Source: a virus
Lineage: Duplodnaviria; Caudoviricetes
Virus record (IMG/VR): IMGVR_UViG_3300037789_000016
Span: 1 to 26,356 of that record
Direction: 5' to 3' (one strand)
DNA: 26,356 bases
In this document: positions 5,130 to 14,350 of the stretch, piece by piece
Layout of the letters: each line of letters opens with the position of its first letter
Position numbering within the stretch: the stretch's first letter is position 1
Notes under the pieces: model-generated
Told to the model about the DNA's origin: nothing
What the model saw: the letters and a program-made list of their open reading frames with translations, nothing else
Databases searched by the model: none
Translations under genes and position numbers: made by a program

Positions 5130-5338
5130 AAATCCAAGAAGTAAACATTTCAGCTGGGTTCAGCAACCGAATCCAAGCCCACACAGACGATTTGACTGCA
5201 ATCATTTCGGGCGGTGAGGTTAAATTCACGTTGGAGGACATCGACATCCATCCAGAAGAAGTCGAGCAAGTCAAGAAGGTTATGGACTTAATCCATACCA
5301 TAAACGGATTGATTAACGAACATAACCGATCGCTATGA
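5126..5338 (+). CDS. hypothetical protein
   Basis: Start reassigned to ATG 5126 (ATGA overlap with the exonuclease stop); 70 aa. Confidence 0.65.
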   Translation: MKIQEVNISAGFSNRIQAHTDDLTAIISGGEVKFTLEDIDIHPEEVEQVKKVMDLIHTINGLINEHNRSL

Positions 5339-5778
5339 CCCTAATCGAACAACTATTCAACGAACTTGAATCGGGGGCAATGCGTATCGCTCCAGAAGTG
5401 AAAGAGAAGTATCTCGAAAGGGAGCAAATTGAATCGCATCGAATCAAGGAAATAATGGGCATCAGTATTGATCAAAAGAAGGTGACCATTAAGAATATTT
5501 TCGATGTAGTCGCTTCGATTTGTGACGTGGAGAAAGAAGCAATGAAAAGCCGTGACCGGCACCACAAGGTATCATTTGCTCGGCAGATATTCATGTATCT
5601 CGCATCGGAACTAACCGAACATTCTGATACGGTTATTTCGGCCTACGTCAAAAGGGATCGGGTCATGGTCGGATATTCGAGAAGCACCATCCCAAGCGCA
5701 AAACAATACGGCACGGAATGGGAGCGAAGATGTATTGCTGAATGCGAGGAGATATTGACATTAAAAACCCCACATTAG
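5335..5778 (+). CDS. DnaA C-terminal (domain IV)-like HTH DNA-binding protein
   Basis: IFDVVA...V....MKSRDR...VSFARQIFMYLASELT..S...I.....RDR.V matches the DnaA_C pattern; no AAA+ domain. Confidence 0.75.
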   Translation: MTLIEQLFNELESGAMRIAPEVKEKYLEREQIESHRIKEIMGISIDQKKVTIKNIFDVVASICDVEKEAMKSRDRHHKVSFARQIFMYLASELTEHSDTVISAYVKRDRVMVGYSRSTIPSAKQYGTEWERRCIAECEEILTLKTPH

Positions 5779-5892
5779 AACGTTTGCCGTTGTCGCGGTA
5801 AGGGTAGGGCTATCCAGTCTCCAGGAGTAGATTAAGTCGGGTGGGGTGCGTGTAGAGGCGTTTCATAACCGTTATGGATGGCAATTGACACG

Positions 5893-5921
5893 CCCCGAAT
5901 CAAAGCGGTTCGGGGTTTTTT
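5893..5921 (+). terminator. intrinsic terminator-like hairpin directly upstream of the methyltransferase
   Basis: CCCCGAATC-AAAGC-GGTTCGGGG followed by TTTTTT. Confidence 0.7.
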
Positions 5922-5930
5922 CTTAAATTT

Positions 5931-6989
5931 ATGATTATGAATGTATTATCACTATTTGACGGTATGAGCTGCGGACAGATTGCACTCAAAGAACTTGGAA
6001 TAAAAGTCGAAAAGTATTATGCGTGTGAAATCGACAAACACGCCATTAAAAATACCTTGCACAACTTCCCAAATACAATTCAGATTGGTTCGGTCACGGA
6101 CGTAAAGGCATCGGATTTGGAGCGAATTGATTTAATCATTGGCGGTTCTCCTTGTCAGGGTTTTAGCTTTGCTGGGAAGCAATTGAACTTTAACGACCCG
6201 AGAAGTGCGTTGTTTTTTGAGTTTGTTCGGTTGGTCCAAGAGGTGAAGGCAATCAATCCAAATGCAAAGTTTTTATTGGAGAACGTAAATATGAAAAAGG
6301 AGTATTTGCGAGTTATCAGCGAATATCTCGGAGTTTTTCCCGTTCGTATCAACTCTAATCTTGTTTCGGCACAGAATCGAGACAGATGGTACTGGACGGA
6401 TATACGGACAAAAGAAACTGGATTGTTTGCAGAGAAATGGACGGATATCCCACAACCCAAAGATAGAGGGATATTATTGAAAGACGTTTTGGAAGATGAG
6501 CTAGACGATAAGTATTACTTGAGTGATAAGGCAGTAGAAGGTCTGTTAAACCATAAGAAACGAGCCGAAGAGAATGGATGGGGGTTTGGTGCAGCTTTAC
6601 CAGAAGGTAACGATAAAATGAATGCATTAAAGGTAGGAGGTAAAGGCAAGGATGATGTTGTTTGCGTAGCTATGCGTATTCCCGAAGCAACATCAGCTGG
6701 ATATATCGAAGTGAATCCGGGAGAATGTGTAGATATGGAACACCCTAAATCAAAAACGAGACGAGGGCGAAAAATGACTGACAAGTCGAACTGTTTGATG
6801 GCTAAAAAAACCGATTTTATGCAGTACACAAAAGACTTCAAACTCCGCAGACTAACCCCAACCGAATGCGCTCGACTTCAAACCATACCAGACTGGTACG
6901 AATGGATCGTGTCCGATACGCAACAATACAAAATGCTCGGAAACGGTTGGACGGTCGAAGTGATTAAACACATATTCCAATACCTTTGA
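5931..6989 (+). CDS. C5 cytosine DNA methyltransferase (orphan)
   Basis: Motif I LFDGMSCG, IV GGSPCQGFS, VI ENV, VIII QNRDR, IX RRLTPTECARLQ, X LGNGW. Confidence 0.95.
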   Translation: MIMNVLSLFDGMSCGQIALKELGIKVEKYYACEIDKHAIKNTLHNFPNTIQIGSVTDVKASDLERIDLIIGGSPCQGFSFAGKQLNFNDPRSALFFEFVRLVQEVKAINPNAKFLLENVNMKKEYLRVISEYLGVFPVRINSNLVSAQNRDRWYWTDIRTKETGLFAEKWTDIPQPKDRGILLKDVLEDELDDKYYLSDKAVEGLLNHKKRAEENGWGFGAALPEGNDKMNALKVGGKGKDDVVCVAMRIPEATSAGYIEVNPGECVDMEHPKSKTRRGRKMTDKSNCLMAKKTDFMQYTKDFKLRRLTPTECARLQTIPDWYEWIVSDTQQYKMLGNGWTVEVIKHIFQYL

Positions 6990-6994
6990 CAAAG

Positions 6995-7023
6995 AACCGA
7001 TCCGATTTGGGTCGGTTTTTTTT
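6995..7023 (+). terminator. intrinsic terminator after the methyltransferase
   Basis: AACCGATCC-GATTT-GGGTCGGTT followed by a T run. Confidence 0.75.
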
Positions 7024-7051
7024 GGTTTTTAATTGGAAAGGGTTATATTTG
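7021..7051 (+). promoter_or_regulatory. consensus Bacteroidota promoter for the replication operon
   Basis: TTTG (7021-7024), 19 nt spacer, TATATTTG (7044-7051). Confidence 0.85.
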
Positions 7052-7054
7052 TAT

Positions 7055-7144
7055 TCGTAATGCGGTCAGAGGCTTACGACATTGTTTTAATCCCCTATTG
7101 TTTTTGGTTTTCTCTGACTGCCCCAAATTCGATAGGGGATTTTT
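7055..7144 (+). ncRNA. candidate structured 5' leader (two hairpins with complementary loops)
   Basis: Hairpin 1: TCGTAA/TTACGA. Hairpin 2: AATCCCCTATTG/CGATAGGGGATT plus TTTGG/CCAAA. Loop sequences GCGGTCAGAG and CTCTGACTGC are complementary. Confidence 0.55.
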
Positions 7145-7157
7145 AATTTTACACGAA

Positions 7158-7841
7158 ATGGATAACGGTTGGATAAAACTTTACAGGAATTTAATAGATT
7201 GGGAGTGGTGGGACGATCATAATGCATCCCGGCTTCTGATTTATTTGTTGTGCAAAGTGAACTACGAGGAAAAGAAGTGGAAGGGTATCGTTATCAAACC
7301 AGGTCAAATTGTTATGAGTTGGGACGGATTAAGTAAGGGTATTGGTTTAAGCGTTCAAAGTTGCCGAACTGCCATGAAAAAATTGGAATTGTCAAACGAG
7401 GTAACAAGAAAAACAACAAACCGTTATCAACTGGTAACCCTTGTAAAATGGGAAAAGTTGCAGGAAATAAAAGTTAGTCCAAGTGGCAAATCAACAAGCA
7501 AACTAACAAAGAAGCAACAAGCAACTAACAAGCAACTAACAACAACTAAAGAAAGTAAAGAAGATAAAGAAAGTAAAGAAGTTGTTAGTATACGCGGAAA
7601 AATCCCAAAGTTATCAGATGTTATTGCTTATGCAATGGAAAAAGGAGTATCAATACAACTTGCAAAAGATGCTTTTGAATATTACGAAGATATGGCATGG
7701 GAGGATAAAAAGGGAGAACCTGTTCAGAATTGGAAAAATAAGATATTAAATAACTGGTTTAAGGACAGAAATGGAAATCTTAAAAAAGAAAAACCCTCCC
7801 AATCCGAACCGATTCCACCATACCTAAAAAACCGATTATGA
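7158..7841 (+). CDS. phage replication initiator / replisome organiser
   Basis: Start reassigned to ATG 7158 (MDNGWIKLYR); wHTH-like N-terminus, low-complexity linker, C-terminal FEYYE...W.D.KG.PVQNWK; directly upstream of DnaB. Confidence 0.8.
   Translation: MDNGWIKLYRNLIDWEWWDDHNASRLLIYLLCKVNYEEKKWKGIVIKPGQIVMSWDGLSKGIGLSVQSCRTAMKKLELSNEVTRKTTNRYQLVTLVKWEKLQEIKVSPSGKSTSKLTKKQQATNKQLTTTKESKEDKESKEVVSIRGKIPKLSDVIAYAMEKGVSIQLAKDAFEYYEDMAWEDKKGEPVQNWKNKILNNWFKDRNGNLKKEKPSQSEPIPPYLKNRL
7492..7589. repeat. iteron-like repeats; putative replication origin inside the initiator gene
   Basis: AACAAGCAACT x2 (7516-7537) plus variants; TAAAGAAAGTAAAGAAG x2 (7547-7563, 7565-7581); inverted GTTGTTAGT (7581-7589). 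Confidence 0.6.
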
Positions 7842-9193
7842 TAACCCTAAACAACAAAGAACTCGAAGCGAAGGTGTTAAGCACAATACTTTTCAGTCCA
7901 AATGAACTCAACGCGATTCTGCACGACTTCCGACCTGATAGCTTTTACTTCGAACCGCATAAGGCAATCGCGAAGCAAATCTTGTCAAGACGAATCAAAG
8001 GCGAACAGTTTGACGCGATGGTAATCGGAAACGATTTGAACGTAAAAGGCGAGTTTATCAGTCAGGATCAAAGCGACTGGATTCAGTACATCATGATGAT
8101 GGACCAATATGCTGGAGGTGGTGCGAATCTTCCAACGTGGAATCTTGAAATTAACCACCTTGCGCAAAAACGTCAATTTCGCGAGTTAAGTTTGGGTTTG
8201 TCAGATTTGGATTATTCCGAACCGATTGAAACGCTAATTAGCGAAACGGGTGCGAAGATGGCAAAGATAACCAGTCTAAGCCCGAAGCGCACCGAAATAA
8301 GCGTTCGAGATAGTTTACCGAAAGTGATGGATATTATCAACGGAAAGGTAAGCGCAGGACTTCGAACGATAAACACAAAGCAAAACAGTATCTTCCAACA
8401 GAAGCCGGGAGATTTAATAATCACCGCAGCCCGTCCCGGAATGGGTAAGACCGCAGAAATGTTGCAAGAAGCGGTTCAAAAAGCCCGAATGGGGTTAAGC
8501 GTTCGGATAGTCAGTAGCGAAATGACATCGGTCGAATTGACCAAAAGGTTAGTGGTTCAGATGGCAAAGGTCAACAACGAACACATTAAGCGCGGTCAGG
8601 TCGATGAAAACGAAATGGAACGAATCAATAAGGCAGTAGCTGAATTAGAGCAATTGGATATTTCAATCGACGAATCGACTAACTTCGATCAAATCCGAAT
8701 GAATTGCCTAAGCGCATACAACGTGAAGAAGTTTGACTGGTTGGCGGTGGATTATTTGCAGAGGTTATCAGGTGGAAGTGGGGATAGCCCAAACCACCGA
8801 ATCGGGAGCATTGCGAAAGGATTTAAGAACTTAGCGAAGGAATTGGAGATACCTGTTTGGCTACTCTCCCAACTTAATCGGGGCGTTGAAACAAGAGGTG
8901 GAATGAAGATTCCTACCTTAGCGGACCTTCGGGAATCGGGAGAGATTGAGCAGGAGGCAGATGTTATTCGGTTCAGATACCGAGCGCAGTACTACGGATT
9001 TGAAACTTGTTCGGACGGATCAACGCCAAGTCAGGGAATGGCTGAAGCGTTTATAGCTAAAAACCGAGATGGGGACACGGGAACGTTTATGGATAAGTGG
9101 ATTGGGAATCAGATGCGATTTGAAGAAGATTTGGAAGGAAATTGGGATAAAATGCCCGAAGTTAACCACGAAATAGGAGAAGCACCGTTTTGA
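7838..9193 (+). CDS. dnaB: replicative DNA helicase, DnaB family
   Basis: AARPGMGKT, SSEM, VDYLQ, LSQLNR, DLRESGEIEQEAD, IAKNRDG. Confidence 0.95.
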   Translation: MITLNNKELEAKVLSTILFSPNELNAILHDFRPDSFYFEPHKAIAKQILSRRIKGEQFDAMVIGNDLNVKGEFISQDQSDWIQYIMMMDQYAGGGANLPTWNLEINHLAQKRQFRELSLGLSDLDYSEPIETLISETGAKMAKITSLSPKRTEISVRDSLPKVMDIINGKVSAGLRTINTKQNSIFQQKPGDLIITAARPGMGKTAEMLQEAVQKARMGLSVRIVSSEMTSVELTKRLVVQMAKVNNEHIKRGQVDENEMERINKAVAELEQLDISIDESTNFDQIRMNCLSAYNVKKFDWLAVDYLQRLSGGSGDSPNHRIGSIAKGFKNLAKELEIPVWLLSQLNRGVETRGGMKIPTLADLRESGEIEQEADVIRFRYRAQYYGFETCSDGSTPSQGMAEAFIAKNRDGDTGTFMDKWIGNQMRFEEDLEGNWDKMPEVNHEIGEAPF

Positions 9194-9726
9194 AAGAAAA
9201 GAAGTGCAAAATATGCGGAAACGATTTTAAGCCGTTTAAAACAACGCAAAAGGTTTGTTCGGCATCATGTGCCATAGAATATGCAAAAGTCCAAGAGAAG
9301 GCAAAAAAAGCCAAGAAAATACGCAAATGGCAACGGGAGAAGCGAATCGAATTGATGACCCACAAGGATTGGCTCAAAAAATTACAAGTCGTTTTTAATT
9401 CGTATATTCGAAAAAGAGACGAGAATAAACCGTGCATCAGTTGCGGAAAACCGTTAAGAGGCAAGTTTGATGCGGGGCATTTTTATTCAGTTGGAAGCAC
9501 ACCGAATTTGAGATTCCACGAAGATAACGTACACGGTCAATGTGTGGAATGCAACAGACACCTTCACGGAAATTTAATCGAATACGCTGAACGTTTGCCG
9601 GGTCGGATTGGCCCGGAACGTTTCGAGCGTTTGAAGGAACTCAAAAACGAGCCGAATAAATTAAGCATTCCAGAGATTCGGGATTTGATTGAGAAATATA
9701 AAACCAAGATAAAAAATGAGAGTTAA
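9190..9726 (+). CDS. ninG: NinG/Rap family recombination endonuclease
   Basis: CKIC...C..SC, FNSYIRKRD, CISCG, DAGHF, RFHEDNVHGQCVECN; TTG start. Confidence 0.9.
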   Translation: MKEKKCKICGNDFKPFKTTQKVCSASCAIEYAKVQEKAKKAKKIRKWQREKRIELMTHKDWLKKLQVVFNSYIRKRDENKPCISCGKPLRGKFDAGHFYSVGSTPNLRFHEDNVHGQCVECNRHLHGNLIEYAERLPGRIGPERFERLKELKNEPNKLSIPEIRDLIEKYKTKIKNES

Positions 9727-12085: not shown

Positions 12086-12253
12086 ATGACATTACACAAA
12101 ATCAAACGACACAAATTGGTCGAAGTAGTCCAAACCGATAACATCCGAGAGATTTGCCGACAGTCTGGAGCGGATTATATGAGAACGTGGAGAGCGGTGA
12201 AAAAATCGGACGGATTCGTTTATTTGGGGAATCGATACATACTTGAGACATGA
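12086..12253 (+). CDS. hypothetical 55-aa protein (not in the ORF track)
   Basis: MTLHKIKRHKLVEVVQTDNIREICRQSGADYMRTWRAVKKSDGFVYLGNRYILET; fills the gap, ATGA overlap with 12250. Confidence 0.65.
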   Translation: MTLHKIKRHKLVEVVQTDNIREICRQSGADYMRTWRAVKKSDGFVYLGNRYILET

Positions 12254-12726
12254 TCCACCCAACAGCCATAATCTATCCAAACTGCGAGATACACGAATCG
12301 GCTTATATAGGTCCGTATTGTATCATAGGCGCACCGCCCGAAGACAAAAAGACATTCCCCGATGGTGGTAAAGGAGTGGTTATTGGAGAGGGTGCGGTAT
12401 TGCACGGTCACGTCACGGTTGATTCCGGTACAAAAATAAAAACGGAGATAATGGACGGGGCATGGCTTATGAAAGGCGTTCACGTTGGACATGATGCAGT
12501 GATAGGAACTGAAGCTATTTTGTCTTGTCACGTTTTAATAGGCGGATGGGTTTGCGTAGGACAATACACCAATATCGGACTGGGTGCAGTTGTCCACCAA
12601 CGAGTAACTATCCCACCTCGTTGCATGATAGGGATGAATAGCACCGTTATCAAAAAGTCCGAAATGAAAGATGGTGGTAAATACGCAGGTAGTCCAATCC
12701 GATACATAGGAGAAAACAGACGATGA
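12250..12726 (+). CDS. LpxA-like left-handed beta-helix (hexapeptide repeat) acyltransferase, truncated
   Basis: IHPTAII, IGPYCIIG, PPED, HVGHD (catalytic His motif), VHQ, GSP; lacks the LpxA C-terminal helical domain. Confidence 0.85.
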   Translation: MIHPTAIIYPNCEIHESAYIGPYCIIGAPPEDKKTFPDGGKGVVIGEGAVLHGHVTVDSGTKIKTEIMDGAWLMKGVHVGHDAVIGTEAILSCHVLIGGWVCVGQYTNIGLGAVVHQRVTIPPRCMIGMNSTVIKKSEMKDGGKYAGSPIRYIGENRR

Positions 12727-13388
12727 AGATAATATACTACACCGCGATGCAAGGCCGACACGACACCGTTCGAATGTGTCTTGAATACAACATGGCGGTG
12801 CGAGATAATTTGAAAGAACATGGCGTCGAATTATCGTTCATCTACGGATATACTACTGACGGTGACGACAAGTTCTTAAACGATTGGGAGGTTCACACTT
12901 ATTTCGCGCCAAATAGTCCGCTTCACGCTAAATTTAACGGAGGAATGGACCTACTCGAATCTATGGATTACGATTGTGTGTTGATGATGGGGAGCGACGA
13001 TATAGCGGACACGGATTATTATCTTTCGATTCAAAAGCACTACCAAGACTACGACCACATCGCACTCAAAGATATCTACTTCCACGACCGATTGAACAAA
13101 CGCTCGTATTATTGGCCCGGATACGACAACCACCGAAAAGGTGAACCAGCAGGAGCCGGAAAGGTTTACACCCGTTCAATGATGGAGCGAATCAAACACG
13201 ATTTATTCCGACCGAGTGTCGATCGTGGGTTGGATCACGGTTGTTGGACTTTGATGAAGCAACATAACGCAAAGATTAAACTCCTATCGGTCAAAACGCA
13301 CGGTATGGTAGTGGACATAAAAGACACTGATAGCAAGACAAAGTTGCGGAAATTCACTAACTTAGACCGAGCAACACTACCATTATGA
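12723..13388 (+). CDS. GT-A fold (GT2-like) glycosyltransferase, copy 1
   Basis: N-terminal strand plus TAMQGR, PLHAKFN.G, hydrophobic strand plus GSDD (DxD-like), GAG, GLD. Confidence 0.7.
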   Translation: MKIIYYTAMQGRHDTVRMCLEYNMAVRDNLKEHGVELSFIYGYTTDGDDKFLNDWEVHTYFAPNSPLHAKFNGGMDLLESMDYDCVLMMGSDDIADTDYYLSIQKHYQDYDHIALKDIYFHDRLNKRSYYWPGYDNHRKGEPAGAGKVYTRSMMERIKHDLFRPSVDRGLDHGCWTLMKQHNAKIKLLSVKTHGMVVDIKDTDSKTKLRKFTNLDRATLPL

Positions 13389-14350
13389 TAAAATTCGCTA
13401 TTATTGGTTATGGAAGAATCGGAAAACGTTATCACGGTTTAATCGAGCAACACCCCGACTGCAAACTAACTACAATAATAGACCCGAACCACCCCGAACC
13501 GACACTCGATACCGTTGCCGAAATCTTACTCAAACAAATCGACGTAGATTGTGCGGTCATATCCACCCCAAACCACCTTCACACACCTATCGCATTACTT
13601 CTACTCGATGCAGGAATAAATGTTATCATAGAAAAACCAATTAGCTTTACGCGAAAAGGAGCAGAAGCAATCCAAGAAGCATCCATAAACGCGCATAGCT
13701 TTGTTGTGATGCAAAATCGATACAGTCCAGTATCGAGATGGCTCAAATCAATCGTAAGCAAATTAGGTCGGATTTATACCGTTGTAGTGAACTGTTTTTG
13801 GAATAGGGGCAAAGAGTATTACATGAAGCACGAATGGCACGGAAGCAAAATAAAAGACGGAGGAGTGCTATACACGCAGTTCTCCCACTTCTTGGACATT
13901 GTTCAATGGTGCTTCGGGAAAATCGATCCAACTCAAGCCACATTCTACAACCACTCACATCCGTATATCGAAATAGAAGATTCCGGAACGGTTCATTTCG
14001 ACCTACCACAAGGCAAAGGAATTTTGAACTTTTCTACTTCATGCTTTTCTGAAAACATGGAGAGCAGTATCACAATACTTGCCGAGAACGGATCGATTAA
14101 GGTCGGAGGCCAATACATGAATGAGGTCGCACATTGCGACATCAAGAACTACCAACTACCCGAAATATGCGATACGACCGAGCCAAACGACTACGGAAGT
14201 TATAAAGGGAGCGCATCAAACCACGCCGAAGTAATTCAGAACGTGGTGGAAACGTTGCAAGGCAAATCGAAACCGGATGTATCTATCTCGGATGGGGTTG
14301 AGTTAATCGATTCGATTGAAAAGATGTATAAAATAGCGAAATTCAAATAA
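13385..14350 (+). CDS. Gfo/Idh/MocA oxidoreductase, WbpB/WlbA-like (putative nucleotide-sugar 3-dehydrogenase)
   Basis: IIGYGRIG, STPNHLH, IEKP, QNRY, WNR..EYY....WHG....DGG.L.TQ.SH..D, EDSG. Confidence 0.85.
   Translation: MIKFAIIGYGRIGKRYHGLIEQHPDCKLTTIIDPNHPEPTLDTVAEILLKQIDVDCAVISTPNHLHTPIALLLLDAGINVIIEKPISFTRKGAEAIQEASINAHSFVVMQNRYSPVSRWLKSIVSKLGRIYTVVVNCFWNRGKEYYMKHEWHGSKIKDGGVLYTQFSHFLDIVQWCFGKIDPTQATFYNHSHPYIEIEDSGTVHFDLPQGKGILNFSTSCFSENMESSITILAENGSIKVGGQYMNEVAHCDIKNYQLPEICDTTEPNDYGSYKGSASNHAEVIQNVVETLQGKSKPDVSISDGVELIDSIEKMYKIAKFK

Follow-up and report, generated by a model that had tools for sequence, protein, structure and literature searches.

A covarying kissing-loop leader ahead of phage replication genes as a candidate transcription attenuator

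Guanidine-IV riboswitches (mepA / GGAM-1, with the variant Gd4v) are 5′ leaders of about 90-100 nt in which a 5′ hairpin and a terminator hairpin are joined by a loop-loop pseudoknot, and the available portions of the reports propose that this kiss keeps the terminator from completing (PMC7736828, PMC11611296, PMC9788692, bioRxiv 2020.10.21.349134). In the rep control of IncI-alpha/IncB plasmids (ColIb-P9 Inc RNA, repY/RLP, PK-repBA), an upstream loop in the leader of the initiator engages in long-range pairing, as described in the accessible part of PMC4705826. In the immunity of phage P4 (CI RNA, seqA/seqC), a leader-derived RNA brings about premature termination before the replication genes, according to the accessible part of PMC4825925. 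Fremin et al. (2023) listed DNAVirus_187, a freshwater, Bacteroidetes-linked candidate RNA lying within 25 nt of DUF1376/DUF4373 genes, as given in the accessible part of PMC10690425. In these respects, the four resemble the phage leader described below.

The leader lies in a 26.4-kb linear virus record that is 35% complete; the window in this text is that whole stretch. The plus strand has a lambdoid-like gene order: recombination genes, a C5 methylase, the leader, an initiator-like gene, DnaB, and NinG, then terminase, head, and tail genes (Table 1). The host is likely a member of the Bacteroidota because of the promoter type and the relatives of the phage. Homologues of the first gene product have the consensus N-terminus MxxGWIKL and appear to begin at the Met of 7158, the likely start in the sequence-only reading too, and not at TTG 7098. 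The short direct repeats within this gene may have an origin role, by analogy with lambda O.

A stand-alone gene for a DnaA C-terminal HTH protein (5335-5778) lies upstream of the replication module and is present too in phi18:3, phi19:3, and tooticki6-1. Ahead of the terminase, a hexapeptide acetyltransferase, an ORF without assigned function, and a Gfo/Idh/MocA oxidoreductase follow one another (12250-14350), like a sugar-modification cassette, which is uncommon in phages. The GC-rich, gene-free segment 5779-5890 is near-identical in sister phages (5/7 pattern matches), folds no better than its shuffles (z -0.8), and gave no match in Rfam. The C5 methylase region 5892-6989 is an insert, the sister phages fusing 5890 straight to the terminator at 6991. 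A terminator-like hairpin (5892-5916) precedes the methylase, 14 nt 5′ of its ATG, and since no -7 box was found in front of the gene, its transcription would need read-through.

Table 1. Features of the leader and of the adjoining genes in the window
Feature	Position	Strand	Details
C5 methylase gene	5931-6989	+	directly upstream of the leader unit
Upstream intrinsic terminator	6991..7021	+	shields the unit from the upstream methylase; its U-tract shares bases with the -33 box
Bacteroidota sigma-A promoter	7021..7051	+	TTTG 7021-7024, 19-nt spacer, TAnnTTTG box TATATTTG 7044-7051
Hairpin P1	7056..7079	+	begins at the predicted +1; arms 7055-7060 / 7074-7079
Loop-1 kissing strand	7062..7071	+	G-rich; core GUCAGAG 7065-7071; three double changes in sister phage
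Single-stranded linker, 9-10 nt	7080..7088	+	linker/coaxial-span ratio 0.74 for the kissed full fold (rough geometric model)
Hairpin P2, terminator-like	7089..7141	+	lower stem 7089-7100/7130-7141, upper stem 7103-7107/7123-7127; z = -6.0
Loop-2 kissing strand	7112..7121	+	core CUCUGAC 7112-7118
U-rich tract	7140..7150	+	U-tract 7140-7144, then AA, then four more U
First gene, initiator / replisome-organiser-like protein, 227 aa	7158..7841	+	phrog_2514 'DnaD-like helicase loader' E 5.5e-22
Short direct repeats within the initiator gene, candidate origin iterons	7489..7542	+	repeat families D2, D4
DnaB helicase	7838..9193	+	overlaps the initiator stop
NinG/Rap junction nuclease	9190..9726	+	

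The promoter, both hairpins, the two loop segments, their complementarity (10 pairs, one G-U), and the U-tract had all been placed by the sequence-only reading, and every coordinate was confirmed on the sequence. TTTG is the -33 consensus of Bacteroidota sigma-A promoters. The TAnnTTTG (-7) box of Flavobacterium psychrophilum covers -12 to -5 in the accessible part of PMC9723704, so that transcription here probably starts at about 7056, and T7055 is for that reason probably left untranscribed. Across the family, P1 most often begins 5-6 nt past the -7 box. The lower stem of P2 has 12 pairs, one of them G-U, and termination is predicted at about 7146-7149. ViennaRNA folds 7056-7148 into two hairpins (-29.3 kcal/mol, z -4.0), and AUG 7158 sits 16 nt beyond the P2 stem. 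A 28-codon frame (7060-7146), with its ATG about 4 nt past the predicted start, covers the entire leader and stops in the U-tract; it is missing from the sister leader and is not general across the family.

The pairing of the two loops amounts to -16.1 kcal/mol, with -9.2 for the 7-pair core. The kiss typical of the family comprises 7-8 Watson-Crick (WC) pairs, here those between 7065-7071 and 7112-7118. Lengthening it to 10 pairs comes at the expense of two inner pairs of P1, but the sister phage retains the longer form as 9 WC pairs. When loop pairs are shuffled, at least 7 WC pairs arise in 0.5% of trials and at least 10 pairs including G-U in 0.3%. Only 1 of the 29 TAnnTTTG sites in the window precedes such a loop match.

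A pattern search of IMG/VR, in which promoter, terminator tail, and ATG were fixed and the loops left free, listed 120 loci of an estimated ~1,300. They contain 115 distinct leaders, 112 of which could be parsed. Contiguous WC loop-loop pairs number at least 6 in 93 and at least 7 in 81 of the 112, as against 4.6% and 2.0% when loops are crossed between different leaders. The same pattern listed 121 loci in GTDB genomes, and once 26 unparsed ones were set aside, only 7 of the 95 bacterial-genome leaders reached at least 6 pairs and 3 at least 7. With strong terminators only, the kiss is found in 5/45 bacterial vs. 89/108 viral leaders. When loop 1 was fixed as GGTNRGAG and loop 2 left free, the exact complement turned up in 31 of 83 cases (three variants), a non-matching variant in 2, and neither in 50. 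The earlier judgement that the loop match is unlikely by chance is borne out by the 93 kissing viral leaders.

MAFFT puts the source kiss out of register with its relatives; the source lineage was therefore assessed by a table anchored on structure, by a covariance model, and by comparison with the sister phage, while pairs were counted on another subfamily. In that subfamily of 25 sequences, 99.5% of kiss cells pair, both-side changes occur at 6/8 pairs, and G-U is absent; the shifted controls all drop to 30-46%, and relatedness inflates the shuffle test. Both-side changes make up 56/200 cells in the kiss, 41/124 in P1, and 42/100 in the upper P2 stem, and neither P1 nor the upper P2 stem has any G-U. 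The idea of a hypervariable 'address' code is unsupported, as the kiss changes no faster than ordinary stems. A covariance model from 9 relatives, with the source excluded, finds 7054-7145 (32.7 bits, E 7e-5). The source leader shares with the family the TAnnTTTG promoter, P1 at +1, a kiss of 7-8 WC pairs starting with GU, a partner strand in the terminator loop, and a first gene within ~30 nt. Scaffold patterns made for the subfamily of the source phage were dropped as mostly chance (7/120 viral loci listed, 1/269 metagenome promoter sites).

The total collection holds 143 unique elements, which fall into 76 clusters when grouped at 80% identity; two of the sequence sets had been picked for a U-tract. 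One kissing strand begins with GU in 131 of them, with 47 distinct 7-mer cores; the GU-strand hairpin is the 5′ one in 87 and the 3′ one in 44, so the hairpin order is swappable. The distance between the two kissing strands is narrow (36-56 nt), which is partly set by the search patterns. Codes such as GUGAGAG reappear on unrelated scaffolds and are mostly constant inside the 80%-identity clusters. YUNR is the U-turn motif. The loop data are compatible with it, a purine following at the third position after G in 109/131 elements; little weight is placed on this because the entire strand is purine-rich. In one subfamily, the terminator stem contains a GAA/GGA internal loop that does not vary, and the A residues after the C-rich kissing strand and the A-U/C-G kiss pairs are invariant too; the internal loop and the A residues (alignment columns 58-61, 80-83) are candidate tertiary or protein contacts. 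A locus in a Bacillota MAG (L404, 4001-4121, minus strand), hence in a non-Bacteroidota bin, combines a hairpin and a terminator with a 9-pair loop match and could be another kissing-terminator RNA. Leaders of the family type also occur on contigs binned as Pseudomonadota and Beijerinckiaceae (L438, L440), which are probably mis-binned phage contigs.

The sister records G027 and G028, which share 5780-5890, carry an orthologous leader with another code. In the kiss, three pairs have compensatory double changes; the terminator stem has one, pair 7095/7135 being swapped from C-G to G-C. Between source and sister, the loop pairing energies are -16 kcal/mol for cognate and -2 to -3 kcal/mol for crossed combinations. 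Covariation, as asked for at the outset, was seen in the family, in the 25-sequence subfamily, and in the sister phage. Because the loop match persists in relatives with different letters, the comparison of sequences indicates a conserved RNA structure, not chance complementarity. One match of 7-10 pairs would be nothing unusual in the scan of a genome (0.3-0.5% per loop pair), but chance complementarity beside an ordinary terminator is already refuted by the family-wide and orthologous covariation and by the bacterial-genome negative control.

The first gene behind the leader of G027/G028 encodes a BT4734-like/PriCT primase. The upstream terminator and the promoter of these records are separated (L776 ~520-720) by a non-coding stretch of ~200 nt that contains short repeats and T-runs and is possibly the origin of the primase-type module. 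The cassette of terminator, promoter, and leader stays invariant while the flanking genes change: identical copies precede the source initiator, an initiator with 38% identity to it, and an 88-aa HTH gene behind which stands an initiator of 68% identity. The primase-headed sister leader and the single cassette before three first genes indicate that the RNA goes with the position of the replication module and not with one protein. At L005 ~2637-2745, a leader of the opposite hairpin order is separated by one small gene from the initiator homologue downstream, which is 62% identical.

Among the first 60 of 90 downstream proteins, which were scanned, 20 match replication-initiator or primosomal PHROGs, and 4 more match related families of unassigned function only (two match DUF6291). 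Another 23, mostly ORFs of 55-80 aa, are without match, and the rest comprise 2 primase/helicase, 4 HNH, 2 Erf, 3 methylase/ParB, and 2 other proteins. Of the claim that this is the leader of the replication initiator, one part stands, in that the leader heads the replication module; it is not bound to the initiator, as it also precedes primases, HNH, Erf, methylases, and small ORFs. Five cultured phages were examined, and in each the leader stands before the replication module: in the Flavobacterium phages 11b, elemoC, and tooticki6-1, the last with two elements, and in Cellulophaga phi18:3 and phi19:3, where the phi19:3 element was read by eye. Over 20 records, three of them not scanned to the ends, one element was counted in 15, two in 3, and none in 2 (one a known miss); these counts are lower bounds, since the detector misses true members (G010, phi19:3).

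We see about an even chance that the leader is a cis-acting transcription attenuator in which the kiss of loop 1 with loop 2 blocks the terminator and allows read-through into the replication genes. No second -7 box was found before 7158, and since the upstream terminator also insulates the unit, the replication genes should need read-through of P2. The kiss is read as the ON state because of this requirement, the order of folding, and the layout of guanidine-IV riboswitches, where the same kiss hinders the terminator in the available portions of PMC11611296, PMC7736828, and bioRxiv 2020.10.21.349134. Host sigma-A polymerase would start at about 7056, and P1 would fold immediately. On leaving the polymerase, 7112-7121 would pair with loop 1 while the 3′ arm 7123-7141 is still to be made. 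The 5′ arm of the terminator would then be trapped in a closed, linker-strained ring, as we infer from topology, and the lower stem would zip too late beside the U-tract, resulting in read-through. If the kiss came late or were prevented, an RNA of ~90 nt would be released. The outcome would be a kinetic race that sets the dose of initiator, helicase, and NinG.

The folding order was followed by the minimum free energy (MFE) of the growing transcript, a series that cannot model pseudoknots and in which the nested loop-loop helix is favoured because P1 is weak. For the source, the loop-1/loop-2 helix is best at 3′ ends 7121-7133, with energies from -18 to -18.8; not until 7141 does the terminator fold overtake it (-29.0). 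In the family, the helix is contained in 130 of 142 MFE structures just past loop 2, in 117 at 8 nt before the U-tract, and in 3 at full length. Simple steric exclusion turned out to be unsupported as a general rule: in a rough geometric model, no more than 45/131 elements have a linker that falls short of the coaxial span even when fully stretched (33 if a 60-degree bend is allowed), and the median ratio is 1.07, so that kiss and terminator could exist together in many of the finished folds. Moreover, a valve without input leaves the upkeep of so elaborate a fold unexplained, which speaks against the attenuator.

An input could come from the leader itself. The kiss would again be the ON state, and released ~90-nt leaders would pair in trans with nascent loops and force termination, so that the replication genes would close as genome copies or co-infecting kin rise. 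We consider this unlikely. An antisense -7 box was seen after 15/141 elements vs. a 12.4% background and, among -7-box promoters, nowhere near the source leader, and the 47 cores speak against a conserved ligand pocket; both suit a self-acting RNA, as does the gap between cognate and sister-crossed energies. In all seven records or loci with two elements the codes differ, but with so many codes two elements would differ by chance anyway. S24 repressors are found in 0/25 records and integrases in 2/25, with HTH_3 genes in 9. A precedent is the CI RNA of P4 in the accessible part of PMC4825925, here without processing or an antisense gene. On the other side stand the both-side changes, which are no more frequent in the kiss than in P1 and the upper P2 stem, the sharing of codes by unrelated scaffolds and their constancy within clusters, and the point that a released RNA able to kiss internally would be inert.

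A somewhat more doubtful reading lets kiss and terminator coexist. The function would then lie in the compact RNA left by termination, or in a nascent fold in complex with polymerase or with a phage antiterminator, and read-through would come about by leak or by a protein; put-like or Q/6S-like action offers models. The linker spans the kissed full fold in about two thirds of the elements, the swappable hairpin order suggests a modular tertiary motif, and the lack of G-U in P1, kiss, and upper stem of the 25-sequence subfamily fits as well, but the linker of the source itself is too short. Nor does a strong downstream terminator that would need processive antitermination appear before 20908, in a scan that misses long-loop terminators. 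Extra targets of the pairing code in the genome of the phage are no more frequent than expected (19 seen vs. 29.5 or 24.9; p 0.03 / 0.14), and their slight depletion is not convincing.

A sensor of the guanidine-IV kind, in which a metabolite, ion, or protein of the host would bind the kissed fold and so switch on phage replication, is a little less probable again. The shared layout, the near-constant GU start of the G-strand, the subfamily with invariant kiss pairs and GAA/GGA internal loop, and the functionally coherent downstream genes would agree with it. However, most loop positions vary, whereas guanidine-IV needs loop bases that are 97% conserved, and either hairpin may come first. The identical leader before three different first genes disfavours autoregulation by the first protein.

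We find a translational switch of the IncI/IncB type, in which a pseudoknot opens a hairpin hiding the initiator start, possibly TTG 7098, very improbable. The frame from TTG 7098 is open, by eye also in the variant with another first gene, and long-range loop pairing before a rep gene is common to both systems, that of the plasmids being described in the accessible part of PMC4705826. Yet homologues start at the 7158 Met, and the first AUG lies at a median of 16 nt beyond the start of the U-tract. An antisense promoter is lacking, as stated above, and a leader peptide is not conserved family-wide (ATG within the first 15 nt in 25/143, at least 15 codons in 8/143). The Rfam model PK-repBA scores 17.6 of 45 bits, on the wrong strand. 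The plasmid analogy drawn at the outset accordingly fails, the start codon lying outside the hairpin. From the suggestion of an attenuator or translational switch, the first half fits and the second, with the AUG 16 nt past the hairpin, is unsupported.

Phages of the Bacteroidota are abundant, and the timing of their replication in the absence of CI-type repressors is poorly understood. This leader heads the replication module in many of them: ~1,300 IMG/VR stretches fit one narrow pattern, and most sampled matches kiss. Since it is retained through module swaps, and with five cultured carriers, it is testable now. If the attenuator reading is true, phages use the kiss-against-terminator design known from guanidine-IV with an apparently free pairing code in place of the ligand pocket, a possible source of orthogonal attenuators for Bacteroidota genetics. 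If released leaders do act in trans, the element would be a one-gene copy counter whose terminated 90-nt product is its own antisense regulator with a phage-specific code of 7-8 bases. It would bring plasmid-style copy control and kin sensing to largely integrase-free, repressor-free Bacteroidota phages and provide a programmable orthogonal kissing-loop terminator.

The Rfam search that had been recommended gave no family match: in Rfam 15, the source stretch has zero matches at the gathering threshold and none near it, and 20 other loci gave only a tRNA. Literature searches, including the accessible part of PMC5737381, brought up no description of the leader family, subscription papers lying outside their coverage. 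Judged by sequence, the family is a real RNA element and uncatalogued. DNAVirus_187, compared by its supplement description only, may be the 3′ half of one leader subfamily. It differs in having only 49 nt, in not being called a terminator, and in showing no kiss in the supplement rows. Some leaders precede Lin1244_N proteins, and one a sub-cut-off DUF1376 match. We take Lin1244_N to be the same as DUF4373.

The antisense attenuators of pT181 and pIP501 likewise act before rep, with an antisense gene that the phage leader does not have. HK022 put RNA places two stems and then a U-tract at an early promoter, without a loop-loop code, and the phi29 pRNA has two complementary loops in one RNA that is not a 5′ leader ending in a terminator. 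Compared with P4, the leader has one complementary pair, one intrinsic terminator, and no sign of a processed internal RNA; its carriers are mostly integrase-free, and its action in trans is putative. It differs from IncI/IncB control by the absence of an antisense promoter and of a conserved leader peptide and by its exposed start codon. Its partner strand, moreover, sits inside the terminator loop, and control is therefore likely transcriptional. With guanidine-IV, the phage leader has in common two hairpins and a loop-loop pseudoknot with a 3′ terminator. A linker too short for the kiss and the full terminator together, the arrangement of guanidine-IV, comes out of the rough geometric model for the source but for just the 45 of 131 elements given above. 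In guanidine-IV, loop nucleotides are 97% conserved, whereas in the phage leaders only the GU start (GU/AC end) is near-constant over the 47 codes. Guanidine-IV precedes sugE and MATE/guanidine-exporter genes, and the phage leaders precede replication, nuclease, methylase, or unassigned genes (60/90 scanned). Finally, the phage leaders have a swappable hairpin order and are almost absent from cellular genomes.
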